Origin: an uncultured Peptococcaceae bacterium
GTDB taxonomy: Bacteria > Bacillota > Peptococcia > Peptococcales > Peptococcaceae
DNA length: 64,000 nucleotides
Direction: 5' to 3'
NCBI GenBank assembly: GCA_964606855.1
Contig: CAZSHM010000003.1
Span: forward strand, 9,172 to 73,171
The translations under genes were made by a program, and so were the position numbers. This document shows, piece by piece, positions 1,526-41,465 of this stretch. Under the pieces are notes generated by a model, which saw only the letters and a program-made list of their open reading frames with translations, ran no database searches and was not told the origin of the DNA. Within the stretch, counting starts at the first letter, position 1, and each line of letters begins with the position of its first letter.

Positions 1526-1934
1526 CTTTCTCAACTCCTTTTCTCCGCTCCCCTGCCGCGTCTCCTCCGGGCAGCTCTGCTCCGGCGGCCGGGAAAACGG
1601 TTCTTTCGGCGGGACCCTGCTTCCGCAGCGGATCGACCCCGCCCGCTCCGCTGCATTCGGGATTGATTCTAGTATACCACGTTTCCCGCGCCCTGCGCAA
1701 ATATCTCTGGCTGTGCCAGGCAAAATTCTCCTCTCTCGCCTGTTTCTGGGTTCGCCCCGGATTCGGGTCGGAAGCACAATTTGTGTCAAACATTGGCAAA
1801 CCCCGTGGAGTTGTGCTATACTGAATTTGGTTCCCTGCAGCAGGGTGCCCGGACCGGCATGCCCTGCCGCCGGCTGTTTTGCGCGTGAGGAGGGATCTGC
1901 TTTGCTTGTCGGAATACAAGAGGAAATACTGCAT

Positions 1935-4894: not shown

Positions 4895-5935
4895 ATGAAA
4901 CAGACAAAAAAAGGACTCAAAAAGCTGCTGGCACTCGCCCTGGCGGGCGCCATGCTGTTCGGCCTCACGGCCTGCGGCGGCTCCCAGGACAATGCGGAGC
5001 AGGGCGGCCAGGCAAACGGCGAAAAGCTGCAGATCGGCGTGATCCAGATGATCGACAACGGCGCCTTCGAGGATATGCGCGAGGGGTTCCTGCAGGAACT
5101 GCAGGATAAGGGCTACGGGGACGACCAGGTGGAGATCCTCTACCGCAACGCGCAGGGCGACGCCACAAACCTGAACACCATCTGCCAGGAAATGGTCGAT
5201 AGCGGCGTCGATCTCGTGGCGACCATCGCCACGCCCGCCACGCAGGCCATGGTCGCCATGGAGAGCGACATCCCGGTCGTCTTTATCTCTGTCAGCGATC
5301 CCGTGAGCGCCGGCGTTCTCACCGATATGGAGCATCCGGATAAGAACGCGACCGGCACCTCCAATGCCATCCCCATCAGCGAAATTTTCGGTCTTTCCGA
5401 GCAGCTGACGCCGGGTGTGCAGACCTACGGCATTCTCTACTGCACGAGCGAGGTCAACTCCGTGAGCACGGCGGAACAGGCCAAGGCGTATCTGGATGAG
5501 AACGGGCTGCACTATGTGGAGAAAGTTGTCACGAACTCCTCCGAAGTGCAGCAGGCGGCGCAGTCCCTGGTCGGCAGCGTGGACGCGCTCTTCATCCCCA
5601 ACGACAGCGTGGTGCAGGCTGCAATGCCGCTGGTCTCTGAGGTGGCCCGCGACGCGAAGATTCCCGTCTATGGCAGCTCCGCGGTCATGGTGAACTCCGG
5701 CGCACTCGCCACCGTCGCCATCACGGACACCCAGATCGGCGCCATCTCCGCTGACATGGCGATCCAGTACCTGGAAGGCACGGCCATCGCCGACATCCCG
5801 GCGCAGGTTGTCCCCGCCGACGCCATCCTCGTCAACCAGACAACCGCCGATGTCCTGGCGCTCGACCTGGACACCGCTCTGTCCGGCGTGGGGGATACCT
5901 ACACCGTGACGGTGGTGGAGGACAGCGCCGAGTAA
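4895..5935 (+). CDS. ABC transporter substrate-binding lipoprotein (ABC_sub_bind type, putative Trp/Tyr uptake family)
   Basis: MKQTKKGLKKLLALALAGAMLFGLTAC lipobox. KLQIGVIQMIDNGAFEDMREGF...NAQGD...ATIATPATQA...VFISVSDPVSAG...NATGTS is typical of this family. Confidence 0.85.
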   Translation: MKQTKKGLKKLLALALAGAMLFGLTACGGSQDNAEQGGQANGEKLQIGVIQMIDNGAFEDMREGFLQELQDKGYGDDQVEILYRNAQGDATNLNTICQEMVDSGVDLVATIATPATQAMVAMESDIPVVFISVSDPVSAGVLTDMEHPDKNATGTSNAIPISEIFGLSEQLTPGVQTYGILYCTSEVNSVSTAEQAKAYLDENGLHYVEKVVTNSSEVQQAAQSLVGSVDALFIPNDSVVQAAMPLVSEVARDAKIPVYGSSAVMVNSGALATVAITDTQIGAISADMAIQYLEGTAIADIPAQVVPADAILVNQTTADVLALDLDTALSGVGDTYTVTVVEDSAE

Positions 5936-6037
5936 TCGGCGCGCAGCGCGGCATGTGCAAATCTCCGTGCTTTCCGGGGATCCGCAAGGGGCTGCTGTGA
6001 GGATCCGCCGCAGCGCATCCCGATACAGGGACTTTCC

Positions 6038-6080
6038 TTCCGCGCGTCCGGGCACAGAGCCCGGCGCGCGGAAGATTTTT
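6038..6080 (+). terminator. intra-operon intrinsic terminator/attenuator after the binding-protein gene
   Basis: A 14-bp GC stem ttccgcgcg(t)ccggg / cccggcgcgcggaa is followed by gaTTTTT. Confidence 0.6.
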
Positions 6081-6310
6081 GCCCGAGCGGGATTCCGCGC
6101 CGCGCGTGCGGCCGCACTTCCGCGCCGCCCAAAAGCGCTGTCCTTCGAGCCATGCGGCACCGCGGCGGTTCTTCGGCGCGCTCTGCCGATGTGTTTTCCG
6201 GCCCTCTTCCGACCGCGTCTTCCCGTACCTCTTCCTGATTCGCTTTTGCACAGTCTCACGCCCTCATTCTCAGAGCGTTCTTCCGTATGTTTCGCAAAGG
6301 AGTTTTTGCA

Positions 6311-7234
6311 ATGGTTCTACTGCTCGGTTCTCTCCAGCTGGGTCTCATCTATGGAATGCTGGCGCTGGGCGTCTACATCACCTTCCGCATCATGAACGTG
6401 CCCGACCTGACCGCCGAGGGCAGCTTTACGCTGGGGCTGGCGCTGTCCGCGGTATGCACCATCGCGGGGCATCCGCTCCTGGGCCTTCTCGCGGCGCTCC
6501 TGGCCGGGGCGGCGGCGGGCTGCGTCACCGGCATCCTGCACACAAAACTGCACATCCACCCCATCCTCTCCGGCATCCTCACCATGAGCGGCCTCTACTC
6601 GGTCAATCTCATGGCCATGGGCAACAGTTCTAATCTGTCCCTCATCAATGCCAACACCATCTTCAAGATGGCGGGCGACCTGCTGCCGTTCCTGGACAAG
6701 GATCTGGTGAAACTTCTGGTGGCGCTGTGCTTCTCCGCCCTCGTCCTGATTCTGCTCATCCTGTTCTTCAAGACACACGTGGGGCTCTGCATCCGCGCCA
6801 CGGGCGACAACGAGGACATGGTGCGCGCCTCCTCGATCCATGTGGATCACACCAAAATTCTGGCGCTGGCCGTGAGCAACGCGATCATCGGGTTCTCCGG
6901 CGGGCTCATCGCCCAGTACCAGAGTTTCGCCGACATCAACTCCGGCGTGGGAATCCTGGTGGTGGGGCTGGCCTCGGTCATCATCGGCGAGGTGCTTCTG
7001 GGGCGGCACGCGCTCCCCGGCACAATGCTGGCGGTCGTGGCGGGCTCCATCATCTACCGCTTCATCATCGCACTGGTGACGCGCTACACCTTCCTGCCGG
7101 CCTACACGCTGAAACTGATCTCCGCCTGCATCGTGGCGCTGGCACTCTCTCTGCCCGCGCTGCGGGCGTACCTGAACTTGCGGAGCGCGCGAAAGGAGGC
7201 GCGGAACCATGCTGCAACTGAAAGCGATCTCTAA
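6311..7234 (+). CDS. ABC transporter permease (BPD_transp_2-like, partner of the ABC_sub_bind binding protein)
   Basis: AAGGAG lies 8 nt before the ATG at 6311. The protein is polytopic and hydrophobic: MVLLLGSLQLGLIYGMLALGVYITFRIMNVPDLTAEGSF... Confidence 0.85.
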   Translation: MVLLLGSLQLGLIYGMLALGVYITFRIMNVPDLTAEGSFTLGLALSAVCTIAGHPLLGLLAALLAGAAAGCVTGILHTKLHIHPILSGILTMSGLYSVNLMAMGNSSNLSLINANTIFKMAGDLLPFLDKDLVKLLVALCFSALVLILLILFFKTHVGLCIRATGDNEDMVRASSIHVDHTKILALAVSNAIIGFSGGLIAQYQSFADINSGVGILVVGLASVIIGEVLLGRHALPGTMLAVVAGSIIYRFIIALVTRYTFLPAYTLKLISACIVALALSLPALRAYLNLRSARKEARNHAATESDL

Positions 7235-8003
7235 AACCTTCTCCCCCGGCACACTGAACGAGCACAAGGCGCTGCGGAAGATTGATCTGACGCTGGAGGA
7301 CGGCGAGTTCGTCACCCTGGTAGGCTCCAACGGCGCGGGCAAATCCACCCTCTTCAACATCATCTGCGGCAACTTCTATCCCGACGAGGGATCCGTCCTG
7401 ATCGACGGCCGAGACATCACCTGGATGCCGGAGCACAAGCGCGCCGCCTTCATCGGCCGCGTCTTCCAGGATCCCATGCGCGGCACCGCGCCCAACCTGA
7501 CGATCGAGGAGAATCTGGCGCTGGCCTACTCCCGCAGCAAACACGGGCCGTTCCACTTTGCCATCAACAAGAAGGACAGCGCGTTTTTCCGAGAGTCCCT
7601 GGCGCAGTACAATATGGGCCTGGAAGACCGGATGCGCACCAAGGTGGGGCTTTTATCGGGCGGGCAGCGGCAGGTGGTCACACTCCTGATGTGCACGCTC
7701 GTGCCGCCAAAGCTGCTCCTGCTCGACGAGCACACCGCCGCCCTAGATCCTGCCACCTCGGAAAAAATCATGGAGGTCACGCGGGAGATCGTCCGCGCCA
7801 ACCATTTGACCACGATGATGATCACGCACAATCTGACCGCTGCCCTCAAGACGGGCAGCCGCACCATCATGATGGACGACGGACAGCTGATTCTCGATGT
7901 CAGCGGCAGGGAGCGGGAGGCGATGTCGCTGAACGACCTCCTGGCGCTCTACAGCAGCAGAAGCAACAAGACGTTCGACAACGACCGCATGCTGCTCACC
8001 TGA
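7209..8003 (+). CDS. ABC transporter ATP-binding protein
   Basis: Walker A GSNGAGKST, signature LSGGQRQ, Walker B LLLLDEHTAALD. It overlaps the permease gene by 26 nt. Confidence 0.9.
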   Translation: MLQLKAISKTFSPGTLNEHKALRKIDLTLEDGEFVTLVGSNGAGKSTLFNIICGNFYPDEGSVLIDGRDITWMPEHKRAAFIGRVFQDPMRGTAPNLTIEENLALAYSRSKHGPFHFAINKKDSAFFRESLAQYNMGLEDRMRTKVGLLSGGQRQVVTLLMCTLVPPKLLLLDEHTAALDPATSEKIMEVTREIVRANHLTTMMITHNLTAALKTGSRTIMMDDGQLILDVSGREREAMSLNDLLALYSSRSNKTFDNDRMLLT

Positions 8004-8090
8004 AGCGCCTCTTCTCGCCCCGTCCGGATGCGCGGCGCGGGACAGTGCAGCCGCAGGGGGTTCCTGCGTTTCAGAAGCCTCTTTCAAATA

Positions 8091-8126
8091 ACGGCGCGGG
8101 GTTTCGGAAGTCGAACCCTGCGCCGT
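8091..8126. terminator. hairpin between convergent genes (probable bidirectional terminator)
   Basis: acggcgcggggtt / aaccctgcgccgt 13-bp stem with one G-U pair, followed by a T-rich tail. Confidence 0.45.
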
Positions 8127-8215
8127 CTATTCTACCTTTCTATTCTGCCTTCCTCTGCGATCGCTGCTCTGTGCCCTCCGGATGCCGCGCCGGCGGCAGG
8201 CTGCCTCCTCCGCGC

Positions 8216-10120
8216 CTATTCCAGCGACAGTTCCAGCGCCTCCCACTGTTCGTACCACTGTGCTATGCGCTCCTCCAGCGCCCTGTACTCCGCAACCAGC
8301 TGCCGGCTCCGCTGTTCATCCTGATAGGTCGCACCGTCCGCCAGGAGGTCCGACAGTTCCGCGCTGCGCCGCTCCCCCTCCTGGATCTGCTCTTCCAGGG
8401 CGGCGATCTCCTGGCGCACCTTGGACTTATTGCGCTCCGGCTTGGCTTTCTCCCTGGTTTTCGGCCCGTTTTTCGCGGCGGCCCGGGCCGCCGCCTCCTC
8501 CTCCCGCTCGCGCGCGGCGCGCTCCAGCTCGTTCCGCTTCTGCCGATATTCGGTGTAGTTGCCGAGATATGCGGAGAATTTCCGATCCTCCAAGAGCAGA
8601 ATGCGGTTGCAGACCGCGTCCAGGAGATAGCGGTCGTGGGAGACCAGAACCACCGTTCCGGAGAACTCCGCCAGGAAGCGCTCGACGATCTCGCGGGATC
8701 GGATATCCAGATGGTTGGTCGGCTCGTCCATGAGCAGCAGATTCGGGGCGTCGAGCAGAATGCGCAGAAGCGCGACCCTGGCCTTCTCCCCGCCGCTCAG
8801 CTCGCCGATGCGCTTCTCCACATCCTCACCGAAGAACAGCATCTCCGCCAAGAGACTGCGCGCCTCGTGCAGGGTCACGTCGTAGTTGCGGACAATCTCA
8901 TCGATCACCTTCTTGGAGGGATCCAGCTGCCGGTGTTCCTGATCGTAGTAGGCGGGCCGCACGCGCGACCCGAAGCGTATGCTCCCGGACACAGGCTGCA
9001 GCTGCCCCATGAGGAGCTTCAGCAGCGTGGATTTGCCCACGCCGTTGCCGCCGATCAGCCCGATCTTATCGCCCTTGTAGACGGTGGCTGTCAGCCCTTC
9101 GAACAGGGGCTTGTCCGGATAGGCCATGGCCAGATCGCGGATCTCCAGCACCACATCCCCGGAATCCGCCACATCCTCCATCCGCAGCTGCAGGGACTTC
9201 TCGGTGCCCACGGCATCCAGGCGTTCCACGCGCGCCAGCTGTTTTTCACGGCCGCGGGCCTGCTTGGACTTCACGCCCGCCTTGTACCTGCGGATGTACG
9301 CCTCCGTGCGGGCGATCTCCGCCTGCTGCTTTTCATAGGCGCGCGTCTGTGCCAGCTCCTGCTCCGCCTTCAGCACCAGATAGCGGCTGTAGTTCCCGTT
9401 GTAGCTCTTCATGGTGTGGTGGGAGAGTTCCAGCGTGCGCGTCGTCACCTGATCGAGAAAATAGCGGTCGTGGGAGATCACCAGCACCGCGCCCCGGTAA
9501 TTCCGCAGATAGGTCTCCAGCCATTCCAGCGCTGCCAGATCCAGATGGTTCGTGGGCTCGTCCAGGAGCAGGAGATCGGGTTCGCGCACCAGCAATCTCG
9601 CCAGGGAAGCCCGCGTTTTCTCGCCTCCGCTGAAGTTCGCGATCTCCCGGCCCAGGTCGGCGTCCGTAAAGCCCAGCCCCTTGGCGATGCCCTTGGCGCG
9701 GCTCTCGCAGCTGAATCCGCCCAGATCCTCATAGCGGTGCGTCAGCCGGCTGTACTCCTCCAGAAGCTGTTCCAGGGCCTCGCCCTCCAGCCCGCCCATC
9801 TCCTGCTCCAGCTGCCGCAGCTGATCCCGCATGGCAAAAAGGTCGGCGAACATCTCCAGCACCGCGTCCAGAAGCGTGAACCCCGGCGCGAAATTGGGGA
9901 TCTGTTCCAGATACCCGATGCTGTGCCGCGCGGAGATGGACAGTTGCCCGGCGTCAAAGGACTCCTCCCCCGTGATGCAGCGGAAGAGCGTGGTCTTGCC
10001 CGCGCCGTTCGGCCCCACCAGACCGACTTTCTCTCCCTCCTGCACCGCGATCTCCACCCGGTCAAAGATCAGATCCGTGATATAGGATTTCCGCAAATTT
10101 TTCCCTTGCAAAATCAGCAA
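8216..10120 (-). CDS. ABC-F family ATPase (two NBDs, no TMD, C-terminal coiled coil)
   Basis: TTG start. There are two Walker A sites (GPNGAGKTT, GGNGVGKST) and two signatures (FSGGEKTR, LSGGEKAR). An inter-domain linker and a Glu/Arg/Lys-rich tail are present. Confidence 0.9.
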   Translation of the reverse strand: MLILQGKNLRKSYITDLIFDRVEIAVQEGEKVGLVGPNGAGKTTLFRCITGEESFDAGQLSISARHSIGYLEQIPNFAPGFTLLDAVLEMFADLFAMRDQLRQLEQEMGGLEGEALEQLLEEYSRLTHRYEDLGGFSCESRAKGIAKGLGFTDADLGREIANFSGGEKTRASLARLLVREPDLLLLDEPTNHLDLAALEWLETYLRNYRGAVLVISHDRYFLDQVTTRTLELSHHTMKSYNGNYSRYLVLKAEQELAQTRAYEKQQAEIARTEAYIRRYKAGVKSKQARGREKQLARVERLDAVGTEKSLQLRMEDVADSGDVVLEIRDLAMAYPDKPLFEGLTATVYKGDKIGLIGGNGVGKSTLLKLLMGQLQPVSGSIRFGSRVRPAYYDQEHRQLDPSKKVIDEIVRNYDVTLHEARSLLAEMLFFGEDVEKRIGELSGGEKARVALLRILLDAPNLLLMDEPTNHLDIRSREIVERFLAEFSGTVVLVSHDRYLLDAVCNRILLLEDRKFSAYLGNYTEYRQKRNELERAAREREEEAAARAAAKNGPKTREKAKPERNKSKVRQEIAALEEQIQEGERRSAELSDLLADGATYQDEQRSRQLVAEYRALEERIAQWYEQWEALELSLE

Positions 10121-10292: not shown

Positions 10293-13200
10293 CTAAAACA
10301 GCTGCAGCTGATCCGTCTCGGGCAAATCCTCCAGCACGCCGTGCCGCTCCAATGTCTCCAGGATGGCCTTCCCGACTTTGCCGCGCTGCGCCAGATCCTC
10401 CACCGAGGTAAACATCCGCTCCCCGCGCGCCTCCACGATCGCGCAAGCCACGGACTGCCCCAGACCCGGCAGCGCCGTGAAGGGCGGGATCAGGCAGTCG
10501 CCCGACACGCGGAAGCGGTCCGCGTCGGACTCCCGCAGGCTGACGCGGGCGCAGCGGAATCCGCGCTGGTACATCTCCAGCGCCAGCTCCAGCACCACCT
10601 GCGCCTTCTTGTCCTTTTCGGAGGCATCGCTTCCCAGAGCCCTGAGATTCTTCAGCTGCGCCTCGATCTCCTCCAGCCCCCGGCTGATGCGCGTGGCGTC
10701 GAAGTCCTCCGCGCGCACCGTGAAGACGGCGGCGTAAAAGGCCAGCGGATGGTAGACTTTAAACCACGCGATGCGGAACGCCATCATCACATAGGCCACC
10801 GCATGGGCCTTGGGAAAGAGATACTTCACTTTTTTGCAGGAATCGATGTACCAGTCCGGCACCTGCATCTCCCGCATGTAGCGCTCCTCCTCCGGGTGCA
10901 GTCCGCGCCCCTTGCGCACACGCTCCATGATCTTAAACGCGCGGCTCGCATCCAGCCCCTTTTGAATCAGATAGAGCATGATATCGTCGCGGCAGCCGAT
11001 GACCTCGGAGATGCCCGCCGTGCCGCTCAGGATCAGATCCTGCGCGTTTCCCACCCAGACGCCCGTCCCGTGGGAAAACCCACTGATGCGCACCAGATCG
11101 GAGAACTGCTTCGGCTTGACATCCACCAGCATCTGGCGCGTAAACTTGGTGCCGAACTCCGGGATCCCGTAGGTTCCCACCTCGGTGCCGATCTGCTCCG
11201 GCGTGACCCCCAGCGCGTCGGTGCCGGAAAAGATCGACATCGTGCGCTGCTCATCCAGCGGGATATCCTGGTATTTGCAGCCGGTCATATCCTCCAGCAT
11301 GCGGATGATCGTGGGATTATCATGCCCCAGGATATCCAGTTTCACCAGGCGGTCGTGGATCTGTTCGTAGGTGAAGTGCGTGGTCACGGTGCCCTTCGTG
11401 GTATCGTCGGCCGGGATCTGCAACGGCGTAAAATCGTGGACATCCGTGCCCTTGGGGATCACCATCAGGCCGCCGGGATGCTGTCCCGTCGTGCGGCAGA
11501 CGCCGGTGAAGCCCAGCGCCAGCCGCTCGATCTCCGCCTGCCGCCTGTGCAGATTGCGCTCCTCCAGATAGTGGACGACATAGCCTTGGGCCGTCTTCTC
11601 CGCGAAGGTCTGAAACGTCCCGGCGCGGAAGACATTGTCCTTGCCGAAGAGCTCCTCCGTGTAGGCGTGCGCGCGCGCCTGGTAGACCCCGGAAAAGTTC
11701 AGGTCGATATCGGGCACTTTGTCGCCCTTAAAGCCGAGAAAGGTCTCAAACGGGATATTGTGCCCGTCCTTCACCATCGGGGTGCCGCATCGCGCACAGA
11801 TCCGATCCGGCATATCCGCGCCGTCGCTGTACGTGCCGTCGTCCACAAAGATCGTGTGGTAGCAGTGCGGGCAGCGATAGTGCGGCGGCAGGGAGTTGAC
11901 CTCGGTGATGCCCGTCATGTGGGCCACAAAGGAAGAGCCGACCGAGCCGCGGGAGCCGACCAGGTAGCCGTCGTCGTTGGATTTCTTCACCAGTTTGTGC
12001 GCGATGAGATAGAGCACCGCGAAGCCGTTGCCGATGATCGAGTGCAGCTCCTTGTCAATGCGCCGCTGCACCAGATCCGGCAGATCCGGCCCATAGAGGG
12101 CGTGCGCGCCCCGGTAGGTCAGCGCGCGGATCTCCTCCTCCGCGCCGACGATCTCCGGCGAATGCAGCCCGTCCGGCACCGGCTTCAGCTTTTCGAAGTC
12201 GGCGATGATCTTTTTTGGATTCTCGATCACGATCTCCCGCGCCGCCTCCGGCGGAAAATAATCGAACTCCGCCAGCATCTCCTCCGTGCTTCGGTAATAG
12301 AGCGCCGCCTGCTGATCGGCGTCCTCGTACTTTTTCCCCGCCATCAGAATGGCCCGGTAGATCTTGTCCTCCCGGTTGGCAAAATGCACGTCTCCCGTGG
12401 CCACCACGGGTTTGCCCAGCTCCTGCCCCAGCGCGTAGAGGTCCAGATTGAGCTGTTTCAGCTCCTCCGGCGAGGAGAAGGTCCCTTCGCGCAGCAGAAA
12501 CGCGTTGTTGCAGAGGGGCTGCACCTCCAGATAGTCGTAGAATGCGGCGGCGCGCACCATCGTCTCGTGGTCCTTTCCGCTCCGGATATAGGCCTGCACC
12601 ACTTCCCCCGCCTCACAGGCACTGCCGATGACCAGATTCTCCCGCACCGCCGCCAGCAGTCGCTTGGGGATGCGCGGCCGCCGGTAGAAAAAGTTGAGAT
12701 TGGACTCGGTCACCAGCTGGTAGAGCGCCTTGAGCCCGGCCTTGTTCCGGGCTAGGATGATGCAGTGGTACGTGCGCTGCGCCTCCTTGGGGAGATTGTC
12801 GTCGAAGAGATATCCCTCCAGCCCGTAGATGATTTTGACGCCGTACGCCTCGCCGGCCTGGTAGGCTTCGGGGAAGGCGCGCACCACGCCGTGATCCGTG
12901 ACGGCGATGGCCTCATGCCCCATCTCCGCAGCCAGCCGCACCAGATCGGCCACATCACAGAGCGCGTCGTTCGCGCTCATGTTGGTGTGCAGATGCAGCT
13001 CCACCCGCTTGTCGGGGGCGGTGTCCGTCCGTCGCGGGAGTTCCGCCGGGAGGATATCGCTCGCGAGCAGCGTCAGTTCCCTGGCATAGCTGTCCTCCCG
13101 CGTGCTGCCCCGCACCCGCAGTGCCCTGGCCTCCTGCAGGCGCTCCCGGAGCGGAGCGATCTCCCCCGGAGGGCGGATCACCTTGCAGGTGATGGAGTCC

Positions 13201-13982
13201 CGCTCGTCGGTCAGCTTAAAGGTCAGCAGTTGTTTCCCGTTCCGCAGGTCCCGCACATCGACGCCAAAGCAGCGCCCCTCGATGACGACGGCCTTCTCCT
13301 CCTCCTGCAGCGATTCGATCGCGCGCGGCGCTTCCTTGATGCGCCTGCCGAGCAGAATTTCCCTCTCCCTCTCCTTCTCGGTGCGCCCGGTGCCGGATGC
13401 GCCGCCGGAAGAGGGACGAGCGGGCGCAGAGGTCTCCGCGGCGGGCAGCGCGGGAGATTCCGGCTCTCTGCGCAGCGCGTCCAGATCCGGCCGCAGCGAG
13501 GGATCACAGCGGAGCTCCACCGTCATCTTCCGCTGCAGGATCTCCTCCAGGAGGGCGCCGGCCTCCAGCGGAAACCGCATCTGCCGCAAGAAGCGCACCC
13601 CCGCGGGCTGGCCGATGTAGATCGCCAGCCGATCGTCCGCGAGTTCCCACCAGCTCCGGTAGAGCCATCCGCCGATCGCCGGATGCCGCTGCTCCAGCAT
13701 GGCAAGAAACAGCGGGAAATGTTCCGACAGAAAAGCCTCCGCCGGCAGCGGCTCCGCCGGCTGCACCAGCAGCAGCACCCCTTCGGCCTGCGGCATATTC
13801 CGCGAAAAAAAGTCCCTGCACTGCGCGTAGAGCTCCGGATCCGGCAACTGCCGGCAGGCGAGCAGGATCTCACAGAGATGCCGCGTCTCGGAGACCGTGA
13901 TCTTGCGGATGCTGGCCGTCTCCAGAAACGCCCGCACCTGCGGATCGGGCTGTGCAATCATCGCTCTGTAGTCCAACTCCAC
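10293..13982 (-). CDS. polC: PolC-type DNA polymerase III alpha subunit lacking the DEDDh exonuclease insert
   Basis: GTG start with GGAGAGGAG 9 nt upstream. PHP motifs ELHLHTNMS and VTDHG, Zn module CPHC...CARC, and GSRGSVGSS, VPDIDLNF, TTGQHPGG, KLDILGHD, KAHAVAYV. The protein is 1229 aa, against roughly 1430 aa for canonical PolC. Confidence 0.9.
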   Translation of the reverse strand: MELDYRAMIAQPDPQVRAFLETASIRKITVSETRHLCEILLACRQLPDPELYAQCRDFFSRNMPQAEGVLLLVQPAEPLPAEAFLSEHFPLFLAMLEQRHPAIGGWLYRSWWELADDRLAIYIGQPAGVRFLRQMRFPLEAGALLEEILQRKMTVELRCDPSLRPDLDALRREPESPALPAAETSAPARPSSGGASGTGRTEKEREREILLGRRIKEAPRAIESLQEEEKAVVIEGRCFGVDVRDLRNGKQLLTFKLTDERDSITCKVIRPPGEIAPLRERLQEARALRVRGSTREDSYARELTLLASDILPAELPRRTDTAPDKRVELHLHTNMSANDALCDVADLVRLAAEMGHEAIAVTDHGVVRAFPEAYQAGEAYGVKIIYGLEGYLFDDNLPKEAQRTYHCIILARNKAGLKALYQLVTESNLNFFYRRPRIPKRLLAAVRENLVIGSACEAGEVVQAYIRSGKDHETMVRAAAFYDYLEVQPLCNNAFLLREGTFSSPEELKQLNLDLYALGQELGKPVVATGDVHFANREDKIYRAILMAGKKYEDADQQAALYYRSTEEMLAEFDYFPPEAAREIVIENPKKIIADFEKLKPVPDGLHSPEIVGAEEEIRALTYRGAHALYGPDLPDLVQRRIDKELHSIIGNGFAVLYLIAHKLVKKSNDDGYLVGSRGSVGSSFVAHMTGITEVNSLPPHYRCPHCYHTIFVDDGTYSDGADMPDRICARCGTPMVKDGHNIPFETFLGFKGDKVPDIDLNFSGVYQARAHAYTEELFGKDNVFRAGTFQTFAEKTAQGYVVHYLEERNLHRRQAEIERLALGFTGVCRTTGQHPGGLMVIPKGTDVHDFTPLQIPADDTTKGTVTTHFTYEQIHDRLVKLDILGHDNPTIIRMLEDMTGCKYQDIPLDEQRTMSIFSGTDALGVTPEQIGTEVGTYGIPEFGTKFTRQMLVDVKPKQFSDLVRISGFSHGTGVWVGNAQDLILSGTAGISEVIGCRDDIMLYLIQKGLDASRAFKIMERVRKGRGLHPEEERYMREMQVPDWYIDSCKKVKYLFPKAHAVAYVMMAFRIAWFKVYHPLAFYAAVFTVRAEDFDATRISRGLEEIEAQLKNLRALGSDASEKDKKAQVVLELALEMYQRGFRCARVSLRESDADRFRVSGDCLIPPFTALPGLGQSVACAIVEARGERMFTSVEDLAQRGKVGKAILETLERHGVLEDLPETDQLQLF

Positions 13983-14046: not shown

Positions 14047-15750
14047 TCAGGAGAAGATCTCCTCCGCGACCTTCTCCACGACCGCATCCAGCGGCACCAG
14101 CTCACTGGAGGCGGACGCGCGCGGCTTGTACTCGATCAGGCGCTCCTCCACGGCCTTTTTTCCCACCGTCAGCCGCAGGGGGCAGCCGATGAGATCCGCG
14201 TCTTTGAACTTGACGCCCGGCCGCTCGTTGCGGTCATCCAAGAGCACCTCGACGCCGCGCCGCCGCAGCGCCCGGTACAGCTCCTCCGCCAGCGCCATCT
14301 GCCCGGGATCCCTGGCGGAAACCGGCACCAGCGACACATGGTACGGCGCGATGCTCTTGGGCCAGAGGATGCCGTCCTCGTCGTGGTACTGCTCCACCAC
14401 GGCGGCCATGGTGCGGCTGACGCCGATGCCGTAGCAGCCCATGTGGATGACCTGGGACTTTCCGTTCTCATCCAGATAGTTGGCGCCCATCTTCGCGCTG
14501 TACTTGGTGCCCAGCTTGAAGATCTGCCCCACTTCGATGCCGCGCGCGCTGGAGAGCGCATGTCCGCACTTGGGGCAGGCCTCCCCCTCCCGCAGCATGC
14601 GCAAATCAAAGTAGCCGTCCACCTGGAAGTCGCGGCCTGGGTTGACGTGGATATAGTGATAGCTCTCCTCGTTGGCGCCGCAGACCAGGTTGCGCATCTG
14701 CTCCACCGCGAGATCCGCGTAGATTTTCACCCCCCGGAGCCCTACCGGTCCCAGGGAGCCGAACCCGCACCCGAGGAGGCGCACCACGTCCGCCTCCTCG
14801 GCCATCTCCAGCGACAGGCAAGGGTGCACCCGCTGCACCTTGACCTCGTTGACTTCGTGGTCGCCGCGCGCCAGCACGCAGATCAGCTCGTCATCGGCCC
14901 GGAAGAACAAAGTCTTGATGCATTTCTCCGCCGGCACACGGAGATAGTTTCCGACCGCCTCGATCGTCTTGGAATCCGGCGTGTACACCTTCTCCAGTTC
15001 CAGCGGCGCTTCCGCCGTGCCCTCCTCCGGAGGCGGGCACGGCGCGATCTCGAGATTGGCGGCATATCCGCACGCATCGCAGTAGACGATCGTGTTCTCC
15101 CCGATGTCCGCCAGGGCGGTGAACTCGTGGGTCTGGCTGTCGCCGATCGCGCCGCCGTCCGCCTCGATAGGGCGATATTTCAGCCCGCAGCGGTCAAAGA
15201 TGTTGCTGTAGGCGCGGTACATATCCTGGTAGCAAGCCTCCAGCCCCTCGGCGTCGCGGTCGAAGGAGTACATATCTTTCATGATGAACTCGCGCCCGCG
15301 GATCAGTCCGAACCGGGGGCGCTTTTCATCGCGGTACTTGTTCTGGATCTGATAGAGGCGCAGCGGCAGCTGGCGGTAGGAATTCACCTCGCCGCGCACC
15401 AGGTCAGTGACGATCTCCTCGTGCGTGGGACCCAGGCAGAACTGGCGCTCGTGGCGGTCGGTGACCTTGAACATCTCCTCGCCGTAGGCGTTCCAGCGCC
15501 CCGTCTCCAGCCACAGCTCGGCCGGCTGCAGAATCGGCATCAAGAGCTCCTGGCAGCCGGCGGCGTCCATCTCCTCGCGCACGATGGCCTCGATCTTGTC
15601 CAGCACCCGCTTGCCCAAGGGCAGATAGTGGTACAGGCCCGCGGCGTTCTTGCGGATGAAGCCCGCGCGCACCAAAAGCTGCTGGCTCACGGTATCGGCC
15701 TCCGCCGGCGTGTCCCGCAGCGTCGTGATAAAAGCTTTGCTCATTCTCAT
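14047..15750 (-). CDS. proS: proline--tRNA ligase (bacterial type with editing domain)
   Basis: [34 protein letters not shown]..., of class II aaRS ProS length, in conserved synteny upstream of polC. Confidence 0.95.
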
Positions 15751-15840
15751 ACGATTTGCTCTCTCCCTCGTAGTATTTTCCGGGCGGCCACCGGACGCGC
15801 CGCGCCGGAAGGAGTCCGCGCCGGTTCCGCACCGGCAGGT

Positions 15841-16914
15841 TCACGCATCGAGCAGCGCCTCCAGCTCCTCGCGGAAGGCATCCAGGAGCGACGCCTCCGG
15901 CACCCTGCGCACGATCTCCCCTCTGCGGAAGAGGATTCCCTCCCCTTTGCCGCCGGCGATGCCCAGGTCAGCTTCCCGCGCCTCTCCCGGCCCGTTCACC
16001 GCACAGCCCATCACCGCCAGCTTCAGCGGCCGCCGCGGCCGGTCCGCCGTCAGCTCGTCCACCAGCTGCTCCACCTGTTCCACCAGGCGCTCCAGCGGGA
16101 TCTGTGTGCGGCCGCAGGTGGGGCAGGAGATGATCTCCACCCCTCCGGGGCAGAGCCCCAGCGCCTGAAGGATCTGCCGCGCCACCGGGATCTCCTGCAG
16201 CGGATCCCCGGTCAGGGATACGCGGATCGTATCCCCGATGCCCTCCGCCAGGAGCGTGCCGATGCCCACCGCCGATTTCACGACCCCGTAGTGCGCGCTG
16301 CCCGCCTCCGTCACACCCAGGTGGAGCGGATAGGGGACGCGCGGCGCGATCTGCCGGTACGCGTCCAGCATCAGCGGCACGTCCGAAGCCTTGAGGGAGA
16401 TCTTGATCTGCGAAAAATCCAGCTCCTCCAGCAGCCGCACATGGCGCAGCGCGCTCTCCACCATGGCCTCCGCCGTGGGATGCCGGTATCGCTGCAGCAG
16501 ATCCTTCTCCAGAGAGCCGGCGTTGACGCCGATGCGGATGGGCACCCCCAGCCCCTTGGCCTTGGCCACAACCTCCCGCACATTCCGCGCGCCGCCGATG
16601 TTGCCCGGGTTGATGCGCAGCGCCGCGATGCCGTGATCCATGGCCAGCAGCGCCAGCCGGTGATTGAAGTGGATGTCGGCGATCACGGGGAGCGGGCTGG
16701 CGGCACAGATCTCCCGCAGCGCCAGCGCGGCCTCCTCGTCGGGCACCGCCACCCGCACCAGCTGACAGCCCGCCCGGGCCAGCCGCCGGATCTGGTCCAA
16801 GGTCGCCGCCGCGTTCCGGGTATCCGTGTTGGTCATGGACTGGATACTGACCGGAAAGTCGGATCCCACGCCCACGGAGCCGATCTGAAAATTTGTCGTC
16901 TTTCTCCTCTGCAC
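15841..16914 (-). CDS. ispG: 4-hydroxy-3-methylbut-2-enyl diphosphate synthase (flavodoxin)
   Basis: QRRKTTNFQIGSVGVGSDFPVSIQSMTNTDT... The preferred start is GTG at 16914, with GGGGAGG 9 nt upstream. An alternative ATG at 17013 abuts the rseP stop and would add about 33 aa. Confidence 0.85.
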   Translation of the reverse strand: MQRRKTTNFQIGSVGVGSDFPVSIQSMTNTDTRNAAATLDQIRRLARAGCQLVRVAVPDEEAALALREICAASPLPVIADIHFNHRLALLAMDHGIAALRINPGNIGGARNVREVVAKAKGLGVPIRIGVNAGSLEKDLLQRYRHPTAEAMVESALRHVRLLEELDFSQIKISLKASDVPLMLDAYRQIAPRVPYPLHLGVTEAGSAHYGVVKSAVGIGTLLAEGIGDTIRVSLTGDPLQEIPVARQILQALGLCPGGVEIISCPTCGRTQIPLERLVEQVEQLVDELTADRPRRPLKLAVMGCAVNGPGEAREADLGIAGGKGEGILFRRGEIVRRVPEASLLDAFREELEALLDA

Positions 16915-17014
16915 AGAGCGCAACCTCCCCCGCAAGTCTATTCTCTGCCTGCCGCACACGCACACAGATCCGATGCGTGCTCCCGCTGCCGCATCCACAA
17001 GGCGGCGGTGCATA

Positions 17015-18100
17015 TCAGGGCGAAAAGAGCCGCACGATGTCCTTGTAAGTGACCAGCACGATCAGGAGCATCAGCAGGGAGAACCCGATCAGGTTGGCGT
17101 AGCCCTCCTTCTGCGGATCGATCGGTCTGCCCCGCACGCCCTCGATCAGAAGGAAGATCAGCTTGCTGCCGTCCAGAGAGGGAATCGGCAGCAGATTGAT
17201 GACCGCCAGATTCAGCGAGAGCACCGCCGCCAGATTGAACACATAGATCCAGCCGGCCTTGGTCGACTCGTCGATGATCCGCACGATCCCCACCGGACCG
17301 GTCAGGCCCTGCTCGTCGTCGAAAAGATCGATTTTTCCGGTGAACAGGTCCCCCAGCACATCCACCATGGTCACCGTCATCTCCCAGGTGGTCTGGGCGC
17401 CCAGAACCAGGCTCCGGATCGGGCCGACCGCCTGGCGCGTTGCCGTGGCCGCGTAGATACCCAGGATGCTCTTGCCGCCGTCCTCGCTCGCCACCGGCGT
17501 CACCTGCACCGTGAACCGGCTGCCGTCGCGCTCCGCCGTCACCGCCAGCGGCTCCTCCTGAGAGGCATCGCCGACCAGGAGGGTCAGATCTTCCCAGGTG
17601 GATACGCTCTGCCCGTTGATGGCCACGATGCGGTCGCCCGCCGCAAGCCCAGCCGCCTCGGCGGGGCCGCCCTCCATCACCGCGGAGAGCGTCGTGTCGG
17701 GATTCTCGATGGGCACAGCCAGCCCCAGCACCAGGTACATCCCGGCAAAGATGAGGATCGCCGTCAGCACATTCATGAACGAGCCGGCGCTGGCAAAGAT
17801 CATCCGCTGCCACACCGGGCGGTTCTGATAGCGCCGCTCCTCCGGCACCTCGACCGCGTCCGCGCCGCTGTGCGCCTCCTCCTCGACATCCTCCCCCAGA
17901 ACGCGCACATACCCGCCCACCGGCAAGAGCCGCAGGGAGTAGCGCGTCTCGCCCCAGCGCCTGGAGCAGATCTGCGGCCCCATCCCGATGCTGAACTCTT
18001 CAACATACATGCCGGAGAGCTTTGCAGAGAGAAAATGGCCGAACTCATGCACCGTCACCAAGAGCGCGAAGATCAAAATCGCTACGATCGCAGTCAGCAT
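17015..18100 (-). CDS. rseP: RIP metalloprotease RseP/RasP (site-2 protease, M50)
   Basis: HEFGH zinc motif in TM1, PDZ-like middle region, NLLPIPSLDG motif. Confidence 0.92.
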   Translation of the reverse strand: MLTAIVAILIFALLVTVHEFGHFLSAKLSGMYVEEFSIGMGPQICSRRWGETRYSLRLLPVGGYVRVLGEDVEEEAHSGADAVEVPEERRYQNRPVWQRMIFASAGSFMNVLTAILIFAGMYLVLGLAVPIENPDTTLSAVMEGGPAEAAGLAAGDRIVAINGQSVSTWEDLTLLVGDASQEEPLAVTAERDGSRFTVQVTPVASEDGGKSILGIYAATATRQAVGPIRSLVLGAQTTWEMTVTMVDVLGDLFTGKIDLFDDEQGLTGPVGIVRIIDESTKAGWIYVFNLAAVLSLNLAVINLLPIPSLDGSKLIFLLIEGVRGRPIDPQKEGYANLIGFSLLMLLIVLVTYKDIVRLFSP

Positions 18101-18201
18101 ATTTCACACTCCTCACCAGCCCGAAGGCCGGATATACTGAAAATCCGCTTGACGTCCGCATCTGCCGGAGGCGCGCCCGCGCGGCGCCGCCCCGGCAGGC
18201 C

Positions 18202-19356
18202 TTATGCCGTCTGTGCCAGCAGCGCGGCCGCCTCGCGCCGTGCCCACTGATCGATCTCCATCAGATGGGCAAAGCTCTCCACCTCCACCGGCGTGTGCCG
18301 CGCAAGAACCGCCTCCACCAGCGCCGGAATCTGCAGGAATCCCGCCCTGCCCTGCAGAAAAGCGGCGACCGCCACCTCGTTGGCGCCGTTTAAGACCGCG
18401 GGCATGGACTTCCCCGCGCGCCCGGCCCGGTAAGCCAGCCGCAGCGCGGGAAATTTTTCAAGATCCGGCGGGTAGAACTCCAGCCCCGCCAGCCGCGTAA
18501 AGTCCAGCTTCGGAAAGGGACTGCTCTGGCGCGCGGGCCAGGTCAGCGCATACTGGATCGGAATGCGCATATCCGCCGGGCCAAGCTGCGCCAGCACGGA
18601 GCCGTCGCCGTACTGCACCATGGAATGGATCACGCTCTGCGGGTGCACCAGCACCTGAATGTGGTCGTAGTCCACGCCGAAGAGCCAGTTGGCCTCGATG
18701 ACCTCCAGGCCCTTGTTCATCATGGTCGCGGAGTCGACGGTGACCTTGGGCCCCATGGACCAGTTGGGATGCCGCAGTGCCTGCGCCGGAGTCACCCGGC
18801 GCAGGGCTTCTCTGTCCCAGGTGCGGAACGGTCCGCCCGATGCCGTCAGCAGAATCTTGTCCAGGCAGCGGCTCTCCGGCTCGATGCACTGAAAGATGGC
18901 GGAGTGCTCGCTGTCCACGGGCAGAATACGCGCGCCGCCCTTCTGCTGCGCACGCCGCACCAGGCTTCCTCCCGCCACGAGCGTCTCCTTGTTGGCCAGT
19001 GCCAGATCCATGCCGAGCTCCAGCGCCCGGAGCGTCGGCTCGATGCCCGCGGCGCCGCTCATGGCGCCCACCGCCATGTCCGCCGGAAACTCCTCCAGCG
19101 CCCGCAGCACGCCCTCCGTGCCGCTGCGCACCGTCAGGGCGGGATCCGTGTTTTCCGCCGCAAATTTTTCGCAGGCGCCCGCGTCCGTCAGCACCACGCA
19201 GCGCGGATGATAGCGCCGCGCCTGCTCCAGGAGGCGAGGCCAGTTGCTGTGCGCCGCCAAGAGCACAATCTCGAACTGTCCCGGGCAGGCGTCCACCACC
19301 TGCAGCGTCTGTGTGCCGATGGATCCGGTCGAGCCCAGAATCGCCAAGCGTTTCAA
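18202..19356 (-). CDS. dxr: 1-deoxy-D-xylulose 5-phosphate reductoisomerase
   Basis: TTG start. MKRLAILGSTGSIGTQTLQVV..., LANKE, DSEHSAIFQC motifs. Confidence 0.95.
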   Translation of the reverse strand: MKRLAILGSTGSIGTQTLQVVDACPGQFEIVLLAAHSNWPRLLEQARRYHPRCVVLTDAGACEKFAAENTDPALTVRSGTEGVLRALEEFPADMAVGAMSGAAGIEPTLRALELGMDLALANKETLVAGGSLVRRAQQKGGARILPVDSEHSAIFQCIEPESRCLDKILLTASGGPFRTWDREALRRVTPAQALRHPNWSMGPKVTVDSATMMNKGLEVIEANWLFGVDYDHIQVLVHPQSVIHSMVQYGDGSVLAQLGPADMRIPIQYALTWPARQSSPFPKLDFTRLAGLEFYPPDLEKFPALRLAYRAGRAGKSMPAVLNGANEVAVAAFLQGRAGFLQIPALVEAVLARHTPVEVESFAHLMEIDQWARREAAALLAQTA

Positions 19357-19457
19357 TCCACCTTACTCCTCTCCGTCCGCGGGAACGGCGGCGCGCCGCA
19401 TCCGCGCGCCCCTCCGCAGCCATCCTTGCAGTAGAACCATACAACAGCAGAAGCGGA

Positions 19458-20303
19458 TCAATTCCCTCCGAAGCGCAAGAAGAACATCCCCAGATCCGTC
19501 GCGAGGAACTCCGGGGAGACCAGAAACGATGCCAAGAGCATACCGTAGTAGAGCACCGGCGCCGCGAGCATAATGCTGTCGAACCGGTCCAGCACGCCGC
19601 CGTGCCCCGGGATCAGCTTTCCGGAGTCCTTGACACCGTACTGCCGCTTGATCAGACTCTCAATCAGATCGCCGATCTGTCCCACCACCGAGATCGCAAT
19701 CCCCAGAAACACCACCGCGAGCGGCGAGAGCATCTTAAAAAAGAGGTTCAGGACGGCCAGAAGCGCGACGCCCGTCAGCACGCCGCCGATCGCGCCTTCC
19801 ACCGTCTTCTTGGGACTGACGCGCGGACAGAGTTTATGCCGCCCCAGAAAACGGCCCACGAAATAGGCGCCGGAATCGCTGCCCCAGATGGCCACAAAGA
19901 GATAGAGCACCAGCAGGCGCCCGTGTTCCATCTCCGCAAAAGCGATCAGGTGCGCGAACGTCCAGCCGATGTAGATCAGCGCCAGCAGATTGATGGCGAC
20001 ATCCTCCACGGTAAAGTGCGGGTAGCGCAGGATCGCGACCACAAACACGAGGCAGAAGGTGAACAGAATCGCGATAGAGGCCCACGCGCGCCAGCCCAGA
20101 TAACTGCCGAGCAGCATGAGCCATACGCCCAGAAGGACCGGAATCAGCAGGAACTGCTGCCGCACGCCGGCCATTCGGGCAAATTCCCAGAGCCCGATCG
20201 TCGCGAGAACCGCCACCATCAGGGCAAACGGCGCGCCGCCCAGAAAAATGAAAAACAGCAGGATCGGCAGACCCACGATTGCACTCATAATCCGAACCGC
20301 CAT
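19458..20303 (-). CDS. cdsA: phosphatidate cytidylyltransferase
   Basis: The internal ATG at 20303 shares one base with the uppS stop (TGATG). Polytopic protein with a C-terminal GHGGVLDRFDS motif. Confidence 0.9.
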   Translation of the reverse strand: MAVRIMSAIVGLPILLFFIFLGGAPFALMVAVLATIGLWEFARMAGVRQQFLLIPVLLGVWLMLLGSYLGWRAWASIAILFTFCLVFVVAILRYPHFTVEDVAINLLALIYIGWTFAHLIAFAEMEHGRLLVLYLFVAIWGSDSGAYFVGRFLGRHKLCPRVSPKKTVEGAIGGVLTGVALLAVLNLFFKMLSPLAVVFLGIAISVVGQIGDLIESLIKRQYGVKDSGKLIPGHGGVLDRFDSIMLAAPVLYYGMLLASFLVSPEFLATDLGMFFLRFGGN

Positions 20304-21052
20304 CACGCATTTCCCCCTTTTTCCTCTACTCCGCCGTAACGGCGATCCCGGTTCTGATAGTCCCAGATGGCCTCCCAGAGATCCTCCTTGCTGAAATCCG
20401 GCCAGAGCACATCGGTCACCCAGATCTCGCTGTACGCGATCTGCCACAGCAGGAAATTGCTGACCCGCAGTTCCCCGGAGGAGCGGATCAGCAGATCGGG
20501 ATCCGGCTGCCCGCCGGTGTAGAGGTAGCCGGCGAAACGCGCCTCGTCGATCTCCTCCGGCGCGAGCGCGCCCCGCTGCACATCCGCGCAGACGGCCCGG
20601 ACCGCCCGCACGATCTCCTGCCGCCCGCCGTAATTCAGGGCGACATTGAGGATCAGGCGGTTGTTCTCCCGCGTGCGCGCCTCCGCATAGCGGATCTTCT
20701 CGCAGGCGCCGCCGCGCAGGGCGCTGATCTCCCCGATCGGCACCACCCGCACGCCCTTCTCCTGCAGATAATCCAGTTCCTGATCGATGAACTCGATCAT
20801 CAGATCCATCAGCGCCTGCACCTCGTCGGCCGGGCGCTTCCAGTTCTCCGTGGAGAATGCGTAGACCGTCAGGTACTGGACGTCCAGCTCATCCAGGGCG
20901 ATGAGCAGCCGTTTCAGCGCCTGCACGCCGACGCGGTGTCCGGCGGTGCGCGCCAGACCCCGCTTTTGAGCCCAGCGCCCGTTGCCGTCCATGATCACCG
21001 CGATATGTTTCGGCATCGGTCTCTGCCGCAATTGTTCCAATGTCACTTTCAT
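20303..21052 (-). CDS. uppS: isoprenyl transferase (undecaprenyl diphosphate synthase)
   Basis: ATG at 21052 with GGGGGAG upstream. HIAVIMDGNGRWA, FSTENWKRP and RTSGE-like SSGELRVSNFLLWQ motifs. Confidence 0.93.
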   Translation of the reverse strand: MKVTLEQLRQRPMPKHIAVIMDGNGRWAQKRGLARTAGHRVGVQALKRLLIALDELDVQYLTVYAFSTENWKRPADEVQALMDLMIEFIDQELDYLQEKGVRVVPIGEISALRGGACEKIRYAEARTRENNRLILNVALNYGGRQEIVRAVRAVCADVQRGALAPEEIDEARFAGYLYTGGQPDPDLLIRSSGELRVSNFLLWQIAYSEIWVTDVLWPDFSKEDLWEAIWDYQNRDRRYGGVEEKGGNA

Positions 21053-24983: not shown

Positions 24984-25041
24984 AAAACTCGCTCCTCTCC
25001 TCAATGGATCTTGTAAGGGAAACGGATATAGAAACGGATGT

Positions 25042-35023: not shown

Positions 35024-35039
35024 GATTCAGCCCCTCTTT

Positions 35040-39595: not shown

Positions 39596-39634
39596 GTGTA
39601 AAACCTCTTTTCCGCAAAGGCGCCCGCGCCGCAC

Positions 39635-40609: not shown

Positions 40610-40621
40610 ACCTTTTATCCC

Positions 40622-41260: not shown

Positions 41261-41465
41261 CCTCTCCCGCGGCGCATCCGTCCGGCGTTGTCCCGGGCAA
41301 TCGCATCCTACCCCGAAACTTTCACTGAAAGTTTATTGTAGCATACTTTATTCCGAGTTTCAACAATTCCATGCGCCCCTGTGCGCGGAATTATGATACG
41401 GTATTTTTATAATAGAGGACAGAACTTGCGGGGCAGCGCCGCGCCGTGCGCATCGCGCCAAACAC

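Follow-up and report, generated by a model that had tools for sequence, protein, structure and literature searches.

The polC gene of the window (the whole 64-kb stretch of DNA analysed here) encodes a PolC-type DNA polymerase III alpha subunit that has a linker of ten residues at the site where canonical PolCs carry a DEDDh exonuclease domain of about 200 aa. Judged against its relatives, this exo-less state is a real and stable feature of the protein and not an assembly artefact. For the proofreading of such an enzyme, the PHP domain of the same chain emerges as the best-supported candidate, as predicted from its metal ligands and modelled fold and as indirectly backed by a hypermutator mutation in a clostridial PolC. 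The exo-less PolC variant as such is already known since 2014.

The polC locus and its product

The product is a PolC, an identification that follows from: (i) the scores of two PolC equivalog HMMs, NF001688 (1487 bits against a cut-off of 873) and TIGR01405 (1359 bits against 1043); (ii) alignments at E=0 to both the Geobacillus and the full-length PolC structures; (iii) canonical synteny, with the gene at the end of a conserved cdsA-dxr-rseP-ispG-proS-polC block (14047-20447). The sequence-only reading of this DNA, which had recognized a 1229-aa PolC ORF in the proS-polC position, is thus borne out. The gene starts with GTG and its reading frame is unbroken across 1229 codons. Its features, together with the adjoining proS, are as follows:

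10293..13982, minus strand: polC, coding for 1229 aa before the stop codon; alpha subunit of a PolC-type DNA polymerase III from which the DEDDh exonuclease insert is missing
13383..13982, minus strand: N-terminal domain region with low-complexity linker, aa 1 to about 200 (alignment with relatives)
13050..13289, minus strand: OB fold, aa 232-311 (PF01336)
12798..13001, minus strand: N-terminal part of the PHP domain, aa 328-395, with ligands H330, H332, D339, H364 and E389 (Pfam, alignment)
12768..12797, minus strand: linker NLPKEAQRTY, 10 residues, aa 396-405, at the canonical site of the DEDDh exonuclease (about 200 aa)
12183..12767, minus strand: C-terminal part of the PHP domain, aa 406 to about 600, with ligands H406, C456, D531 and H533 (Pfam, alignment, model)
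10866..12134, minus strand: Pol3 core (palm, thumb, fingers), aa 617-1039, with catalytic D758, D760 and D883 (Pfam, alignment)
11787..11873, minus strand: Zn-binding module, C704-x2-C707 ... C729-x2-C732 (invariant alignment columns)
10320..10547, minus strand: tandem helix-hairpin-helix, aa 1146-1221 (HHH_6, PF14579)
10296..10310, minus strand: C-terminal beta-clamp-binding motif QLQLF, aa 1225-1229 (conserved in relatives)
14047..15750, minus strand: proS, directly upstream of polC; part of the cdsA-dxr-rseP-ispG-proS-polC block

The Pfam match to the PHP domain extends over aa 328-472 and is preceded by the OB fold; the polymerase core is matched by DNA_pol3_alpha (PF07733) and the finger domain (PF17657). 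PF14480 and PF11490 are absent from the Pfam result for this protein; its N-terminal region is alignable with relatives that have them, and the N-terminal domain of PolC is known to be poorly conserved (PMC3919608). The clamp-binding motif may be compared with the consensus QL[S/D]LF (PMC3919608). All the motifs that had been picked out by eye, namely ELHLHTNMS, VTDHG, the four Zn cysteines, GSRGSVGSS, PDIDLNF, TTGQHPGG and KLDILGHD, are present and invariant in the alignment of relatives. With the DDD triad, the Zn cysteines and the clamp motif conserved, the gene is, on this sequence evidence, no pseudogene.

As regards the wider window, about 80% of its genes are encoded on the same strand, and its GC skew is negative throughout. 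Four plus-strand ORFs (32783-33991, 36980-37396, 39305-39601 and 39827-41341), reported by a crude GC3 gene caller, have no Pfam hits and an abnormal GC1, and are probably wrong-strand calls.

The missing exonuclease and the reality of the junction

At the junction the segment YGLEGYLFDD is followed by the linker (N396-Y405) and then by H406 of 'YHCIILA'. The alignment places the gap exactly where the sequence-only reading had put it, with about ten residues after YGLEGYLFDD, and corrects the position of that segment from about 388-395 to aa 386-395. Exo-containing relatives have 200-201 residues in the alignment block of the linker, and others have 207-211 residues between the equivalents of D395 and H406. 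The same discontinuity is apparent in the profile matches: NF001688 and TIGR01405 each align in two stretches, the second of which begins at residue 400-401 of the query and position 611 of 1445 in the profile, and the full-length PolC 9qpc is aligned over chain residues 240-468 plus 636-1471. On account of the missing DEDDh insert, we assign the protein to the exo-less subgroup rather than to canonical PolC.

Searches for the domain itself came back empty, in agreement with the earlier claims that the ORF has no exonuclease motifs and the window no dnaQ-like gene. RNase_T (PF00929) gives no Pfam match in the polC ORF even at E<=1. An Exo HMM built from the Exo inserts of four relatives, which scores its positive controls at 344-357 bits (1e-106 to 1e-110), reaches only E=1.2 on the window PolC and, against the six-frame translation of the 64-kb window, a best E of 5.5, i.e., no DEDDh signal. 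Neither a dnaQ-like nor a dnaE gene is among the called genes of the window. We also considered a degenerate Exo remnant in those relatives with longer linkers (17-18 residues; L020-L022, L031 and L032) and rejected it: these linkers give no match to the Exo HMM and 18 residues are too few for the fold.

The same block is missing in 119 of 144 full-length PolC homologues, which have linkers of 6-18 residues; a comparison of polC lengths puts these roughly 119 exo-less proteins at 1195-1304 aa. In a scan of species-representative genomes, the nearest relatives (65-74% identity, none above 74%) are titled as Peptococcaceae or Clostridia MAGs, and by these titles we assign the host of the window to a Clostridia-type group. 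Among twelve species representatives of gut Peptococcaceae, the linker has 10 residues in eleven and 13 in one, and among the species-level relatives it is conserved as DLPKEEQ[KR]TYH.

These comparisons bear on the suggestion of the earlier reading that the assembly had lost about 600 bp. That the junction arose by a collapsed assembly, or that the gene is a decaying pseudogene minus about 600 bp, has a practically negligible probability in our estimate. Its one point of departure is that the source is a single contig, the exact window protein being recorded on one contig only. Against this stand the intact 1229-codon frame with all its catalytic motifs and the presence of an identical junction in dozens of independent assemblies plus complete genomes. 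To elaborate, close-relative protein clusters were assembled on 33, 19, 10 and 9 contigs; more than 100 more distant exo-less PolCs come from independent assemblies; and exo-less PolCs are found in the complete genomes of Moorella, Thermanaerosceptrum and Zhaonella. Further, a search for repeats and hairpins near the junction (nt 12500-13100) recovered only one 11-nt direct repeat, its copies 327 nt apart, which we judge to be a chance occurrence. An in-frame junction common to about a dozen species-level relatives and more than 100 distant PolCs refutes the lost-sequence option.

Candidate sources of proofreading

The window PolC retains all nine metal ligands of the PHP site (H330/H332/D339/H364/E389/H406/C456/D531/H533), which read HHDHEHCDH and can be set against the HHDHEH[C/H]DH motif used as the criterion for an 'active' PHP domain (PMC12926913). 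An AlphaFold2 model of aa 320-620 (pLDDT 91.3, pTM 0.88) has an intact PHP barrel with the linker forming a short loop between two strands (mean pLDDT about 93 in 10-residue blocks), and Foldseek aligns this PHP model to PolC PHP domains with TM 0.83-0.88 and to DnaE PHP domains with TM 0.71-0.75. It is the presence of the full motif and the intactness of the fold that make the PHP domain the best supported of the alternatives named in the earlier reading, its activity being predicted from sequence and model.

The motif is intact in 119 of 119 exo-less PolCs and equally in 25 of 25 Exo-containing relatives, so that as a discriminator between the two forms it fails within our sample of 144. Since every sampled sequence carries HHDHEHCDH, the argument for complementarity draws its PHP-inactive PolCs from the published survey (PMC12926913). 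Indirect backing comes from Clostridium thermocellum, in which the PolC substitution C669Y produces a hypermutator with a genome-wide mutation rate raised about 30-fold (bioRxiv 10.1101/2021.07.30.454558). C669Y sits in an Exo-containing PolC, and its effect could come about via destabilization of the PHP domain or mispositioning of the Exo domain rather than loss of PHP catalysis. In the literature searched we found no biochemical demonstration of a PolC PHP domain as an exonuclease.

Hence, we advance the following reading, which we consider probable: the window encodes a functional, naturally exo-less PolC that proofreads with the PHP site on its own chain, with DnaE1 as a second replicase. 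In place of the DEDDh domain, which canonical PolCs loop out of the PHP barrel, the protein has the ten-residue connector, and its polymerase core, PHP barrel, HhH, Zn module and clamp-binding tail remain intact. On this reading PolC, bound to the beta clamp, would still participate in replicating the chromosome. Its 3'-5' proofreading would then be provided by its own metal-dependent PHP exonuclease site, the arrangement known from Thermus Pol III alpha and from the DnaE1 of mycobacteria. DnaE1, the presence of which we assume from the literature and which is PHP-active in Clostridia, would probably serve as the second replicase and proofreader.

One alternative is proofreading in trans: a DnaQ/epsilon-like DEDDh protein, encoded by its own gene at another place in the genome, would dock on PolC or DnaE1 in the manner of E. 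coli epsilon. The scope of our search, 64 kb of the genome, leaves room for such a protein; stand-alone DnaQ homologues average more than three per bacterial proteome (PMC12926913), and a putative epsilon-binding surface is conserved on clostridial DnaE1 (PMC3919608). Nevertheless, we regard this as quite unlikely: a DEDDh domain is found neither in the 64-kb window nor, in any exo-less relative, within 10 kb on either side of polC (less on short contigs); an intact PHP site would make an extra proofreader unnecessary; and no description of a PolC-epsilon complex was found in the literature searched.

A second alternative is that PolC has ceded its place as main replicase, the bulk of synthesis being done by DnaE1, which is fully equipped in Clostridia, so that PolC has a restricted role in which loss of the proofreader is tolerated. 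This possibility was raised by Timinskas et al. (PMC3919608), who found all Exo-less PolCs in PolC+DnaE1 genomes and DnaE1 alone in some Clostridia. We hold it to be unlikely in view of the catalytic triad, clamp motif and PHP ligands, which are invariant over all 144 PolC sequences, and of the retention of the canonical locus. A bias in gene strand is typical of PolC-using genomes, and the strand distribution and uniformly negative GC skew of the window weigh weakly in the same direction. Moreover, in C. thermocellum, itself a PolC+DnaE1 organism, the roughly 30-fold genome-wide effect follows from one point mutation in polC, which implies that PolC synthesizes a substantial share of the DNA.

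Known systems and the origin of the exo-less state

The earlier reading had implied that the variant might be new. In fact, exo-less PolCs have been described from Clostridia and Negativicutes (Timinskas, Balvociute, Timinskas & Venclovas, NAR 2014; PMC3919608): about 6% of PolCs are without the Exo insertion, all but one exception belong to these two groups, and in them PolC is paired with DnaE1. The window PolC shares with these proteins the OB, PHP, Pol3 and HhH domains, the want of the Exo insertion, the conserved PHP metal site and an origin in a Clostridia-type anaerobe. It differs in nothing essential, coming from an uncultured gut 'Peptococcaceae' lineage outside the 2014 genome set. 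Canonical PolC (Bacillus subtilis, Staphylococcus aureus and Enterococcus; 9QPC) is of the same family, with the same domain order, catalytic residues, Zn module, clamp motif and proS-polC synteny. In contrast to the window protein, it has the DEDDh proofreader of about 200 aa inside the PHP domain and DnaE3 as its partner; the PHP site of PolC is often degenerate in PolC+DnaE3 systems (PMC12926913).

An engineered counterpart exists in the Geobacillus kaustophilus PolC construct (3F2B/3F2C/3F2D), from which Exo is absent at the same point of the PHP domain. There a GSGSG-type short linker stands in place of the natural NLPKEAQRTY, the parent enzyme has Exo and the construct is without the N-terminal domain, whereas the window PolC is natural and keeps it. 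3F2B aligns to the window PolC in one stretch (aa 215-1229, E=0), with a TM of 0.83 to the PHP model. Likewise, Mycobacterium tuberculosis DnaE1 (PMC5636811) and Thermus thermophilus Pol III alpha are C-family replicases with the nine-ligand motif and no integral DEDDh domain, and the window PolC probably shares their trinuclear-metal PHP proofreading; these two are DnaE1-type enzymes with experimentally established activity, whereas the window protein is PolC-type and its activity is predicted. C. thermocellum PolC belongs to the same clostridial PolC+DnaE1 arrangement and its C669, a Cys ligand of the PHP metals, corresponds to C456 of the window protein, but the C. thermocellum enzyme still has its Exo domain.

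As a discovery the present case is of small importance: the variant was published in 2014, and in public annotation such proteins already go by the name of PolC-type DNA polymerase III. In the literature searched we found no demonstration of proofreading by a DEDDh-less PolC, nor of the division of labor between PolC and DnaE1 at the clostridial fork; being natural 'PHP-only' enzymes, exo-less PolCs offer clean material for testing PolC PHP proofreading. Among gut anaerobes they are abundant. As an antibiotic target, PolC is addressed by ibezapolstat-type inhibitors (PMC12592400), and hence there is some practical relevance in knowing which commensals have divergent forms of it.

This leads to the question of whether the exo-less state reflects loss or ancestral absence. 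On a quick tree, a single uncorrected NJ tree calculated without support values, the exo-less state needs at least four changes with an ambiguous root state ({0,1}), and the Exo-containing clades occupy at least three positions. Their placement argues for a single gain with several later losses, and this rough tree suggests repeated loss of the Exo domain, in lineages retaining an active-type PHP site. The description 'clean deletion' given in the earlier reading is fair as a description of the junction, its direction being one that the rough tree suggests. Alternatively, the exo-less form could be the primitive PolC, predating the DEDDh insertion, with the PHP domain as the original and only proofreader. 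We consider this very unlikely; it would fit with a published proposal in which the PolC+DnaE1 system of Clostridia comes nearest to the ancestral replisome with two polymerases (PMC3919608) and, if true, a primitive exo-less PolC would be preserved in Peptococcia, Moorellia, Negativicutes and some Oscillospirales.

Anatomy of a PolC with a linker in place of the exonuclease

In the window, polC belongs to a minus-strand block of cdsA, dxr, rseP, ispG, proS and polC, with an ABC-F ATPase gene downstream, as delineated by rough gene calling and Pfam:

10293..13982, minus strand: polC, GTG start, 1229 aa
PolC aa 232-311: OB fold (Pfam)
PolC from aa 328: PHP domain (Pfam)
PolC, further Pfam domains: Pol III alpha NTPase and finger domains, C-terminal HhH
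14047-15750, minus strand: proS (rough calling and Pfam)
19458-20447, minus strand: cdsA (rough calling and Pfam)

The position and length of the polC ORF are those given by a sequence-only reading, and its central claim also holds: the DEDDh exonuclease (Exo) usually inserted in the PHP domain is missing. In an alignment of the window PolC with nine relatives, five of them exo-less and four Exo-containing, YGLEGYLFDD (aa 386-395) is followed by the 10-residue linker NLPKEAQRTY (aa 396-405, nt 12768-12797) and directly thereafter by H406 of YHCIILA; that reading had the site right and its numbering off by two residues. The same block comprises 200-201 residues in the Exo-containing relatives, and in other Exo-containing relatives 207-211 residues separate the equivalents of D395 and H406. 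A Pfam search detected no RNase_T/DEDDh domain (PF00929) in the window PolC even at E<=1, and an HMM made from four Exo inserts of relatives, which scores positive controls at 344-357 bits, reached only E=1.2. On a six-frame translation of all 64 kb its best match was E=5.5, and neither a DnaQ-like exonuclease nor a DnaE was found among the genes called in the window, in agreement with the earlier statement that it lacks a dnaQ-like gene.

Two NCBIfam PolC equivalog models match the protein at 1487 bits (cut-off 873) and 1359 bits (cut-off 1043), both split into two matches, the second of which places query residue 400-401 at profile position 611 of 1445. With the full-length PolC of PDB 9qpc the alignment falls into two segments of the chain, 240-468 and 636-1471. 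Structure 3f2b, from Geobacillus kaustophilus and described in PMC3919608 as having neither the NTD nor the Exo domain, yields a single unbroken alignment with aa 215-1229, in which the natural linker exactly faces the engineered GSGSG-type bridge of that chain. The window PolC also retains the conserved cysteines of the Zn module (C704, C707, C729, C732), the conserved aspartates of the catalytic site (D758, D760, D883) and, at its C-terminus, the conserved clamp motif QLQLF.

Recurrence and origin of the exo-less state

A protein search recovered dozens of short PolCs (about 1195-1247 aa, without PF00929), including those of the named genomes Moorella, Thermanaerosceptrum fracticalcis, Thermanaeromonas, Desulfonispora and Paradesulfitobacterium, as against Exo-containing PolCs of about 1415-1465 aa (e.g., Thermincola, Desulforamulus). 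The short form is also present in Zhaonella. The closest species representatives, at 65-74% identity, are MAGs of uncultured gut 'Peptococcaceae', recovered from human, mouse and ruminant samples. Among 12 PolCs retrieved from this group the linker has 10 residues in 11 and 13 residues in one, and its consensus DLPKEEQ[KR]TYH is kept despite overall identity of about 70%. The protein clusters of these relatives derive from 33, 19, 10 and 9 separate contigs (NCBI, ENA, Logan), and no meaningful repeat flanks the polC junction. Therefore, assembly collapse, which the sequence-only reading had entertained as a loss of about 600 bp, and pseudogene origin are excluded for practical purposes, and the exo-less state is a real feature.

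As to its origin, we built a neighbour-joining tree, without support values, of 144 full-length PolCs (1006 conserved columns, Exo region excluded) in a sample biased towards the window PolC. Fitch parsimony on this tree requires at least four changes in Exo presence, with an ambiguous root state. Desulfotomaculia/Thermincola-type Exo-containing PolCs are nested inside the large exo-less assemblage that holds the window PolC, and exo-less PolCs of Acutalibacteraceae/Ruminococcus-like MAGs, with 18-residue linkers, are sister to Exo-containing ones. The differences in linker length and sequence are consistent with several separate losses. The form with 18-residue linkers, a second kind of exo-less PolC, comes from five loci of Acutalibacteraceae, Ruminococcus-like and Clostridia MAGs (L020, L021, L022, L031, L032), where the ORFs measure about 1277-1304 aa from stop to stop and the linkers are of the type IRHNLDGLTNKEIGKLSN; its sister position to the Exo-containing L018, L019 and L030 suggests a loss separate from that in the Peptococcaceae/Moorella-type group.

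Negativicutes PolCs (Acidaminococcus, Selenomonadales; L015, L016, L017, L013, L027) are likewise exo-less, in agreement with the 2014 report (PMC3919608); their linkers are shorter still, at 6-8 residues, and the HHDHEHCDH motif is intact. On an HRGM MAG contig (L029, 5400-9112, plus strand), the Exo HMM matches consecutive overlapping ORFs (5400-7040 and 7004-9112); this Exo-containing polC appears to be frameshifted, through assembly error or as a pseudogene.

The PHP site as candidate proofreader

The PHP metal ligands of the window PolC (H330, H332, D339, H364, E389, H406, C456, D531, H533) spell HHDHEHCDH, conforming to the 'active' site HHDHEH[C/H]DH of a 2026 survey (PMC12926913), and none of the nine varies across the full-length homologues, whether exo-less (119/119) or Exo-containing (25/25). 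AlphaFold2 models aa 320-620 with a mean pLDDT of 91.3 and a pTM of 0.88. The linker appears there as a short loop flanked by two strands, the mean pLDDT of its blocks being about 93, and superposition of the model on PHP domains of PolCs gives TM 0.83-0.88.

The interpretation given by the sequence-only reading is borne out in part. Among its alternatives, we infer that proofreading by the PHP domain is to be favoured, given the intact nine-ligand site: the window PolC would derive its 3'-5' proofreading from its own PHP site, as do the Pol III alpha of Thermus and the DnaE1 of mycobacteria (PMC5636811). Indirect support comes from C669Y of a Clostridium thermocellum hypermutator, whose PolC has an Exo domain: the mutated position is a PHP ligand that corresponds to C670 of G. 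kaustophilus and aligns with C456 of the window PolC. The effect of this substitution could be structural instead of catalytic. PHP-inactive PolCs are complemented by a DnaQ domain (PMC12926913); the converse holds in our sample, because the PHP site is intact in all PolCs that lack DnaQ. According to the same survey, three candidate proofreaders are usual in Clostridia: the PHP of PolC, the PHP of DnaE1 and the DnaQ of PolC.

Since the literature already covers exo-less PolC, documented in 2014 by Timinskas et al. (PMC3919608) for about 6% of PolCs, all of them, apart from a single exception, from Clostridia and Negativicutes with a PolC and DnaE1 pair, and PHP/DnaQ proofreaders (PMC12926913, from the same group), the window PolC is a further member of a known variant and its discovery value is low. 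In the literature searched we found no biochemical demonstration of exonuclease activity for a PolC PHP domain; exo-less PolCs are a good and so far unused resource for tests of PHP proofreading by PolC and of how the two polymerases of PolC+DnaE1 replisomes share the work.

Other features of the window

A single 596-aa ORF at 59248-61038 (minus) encodes a complete NUDIX hydrolase (aa 64-244, match to PDB 3fcm, E=4.5e-27; Pfam NUDIX at 101-234) and a complete MutY adenine glycosylase (aa 258-577, match to 6q0c, E=1e-71; HhH-GPD and NUDIX_4) without a stop codon between them, and may be a MutT-like/MutY fusion for oxidised guanine. Three minus-strand stretches (22905-26493, 41640-43121, 46045-48162) hold two copies of about 700 aa of the type I phosphodiesterase/nucleotide pyrophosphatase family and two CitMHS-family transporters; the pairs are distant paralogues (29% and 26% identity), and the stretches are GC-poorer (0.56-0.59 vs about 0.64 elsewhere).

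The GC skew is negative in 31/32 two-kb bins of 1-64000 and the minus strand carries about 80% of the genes judged credible; the window appears to lie wholly on one replichore, its genes co-oriented with replication. A tetrapyrrole biosynthesis cluster (34010-39095, minus) comprises hemB (34010-35023), a cobA/hemD fusion (35040-36809) and hemA (37545-39095). The plus-strand ORFs beside it (32783-33991, 36980-37396) have no Pfam matches and are probably wrong-strand calls masking hemL- or hemC-like genes. Finally, a 559-aa ORF (1473-3152, plus) in the lowest-GC part of the window's left end, whose sole match is a weak one to an Eco57I-type restriction-modification methylase (E=2.9e-06), could be a mobile or defence gene.
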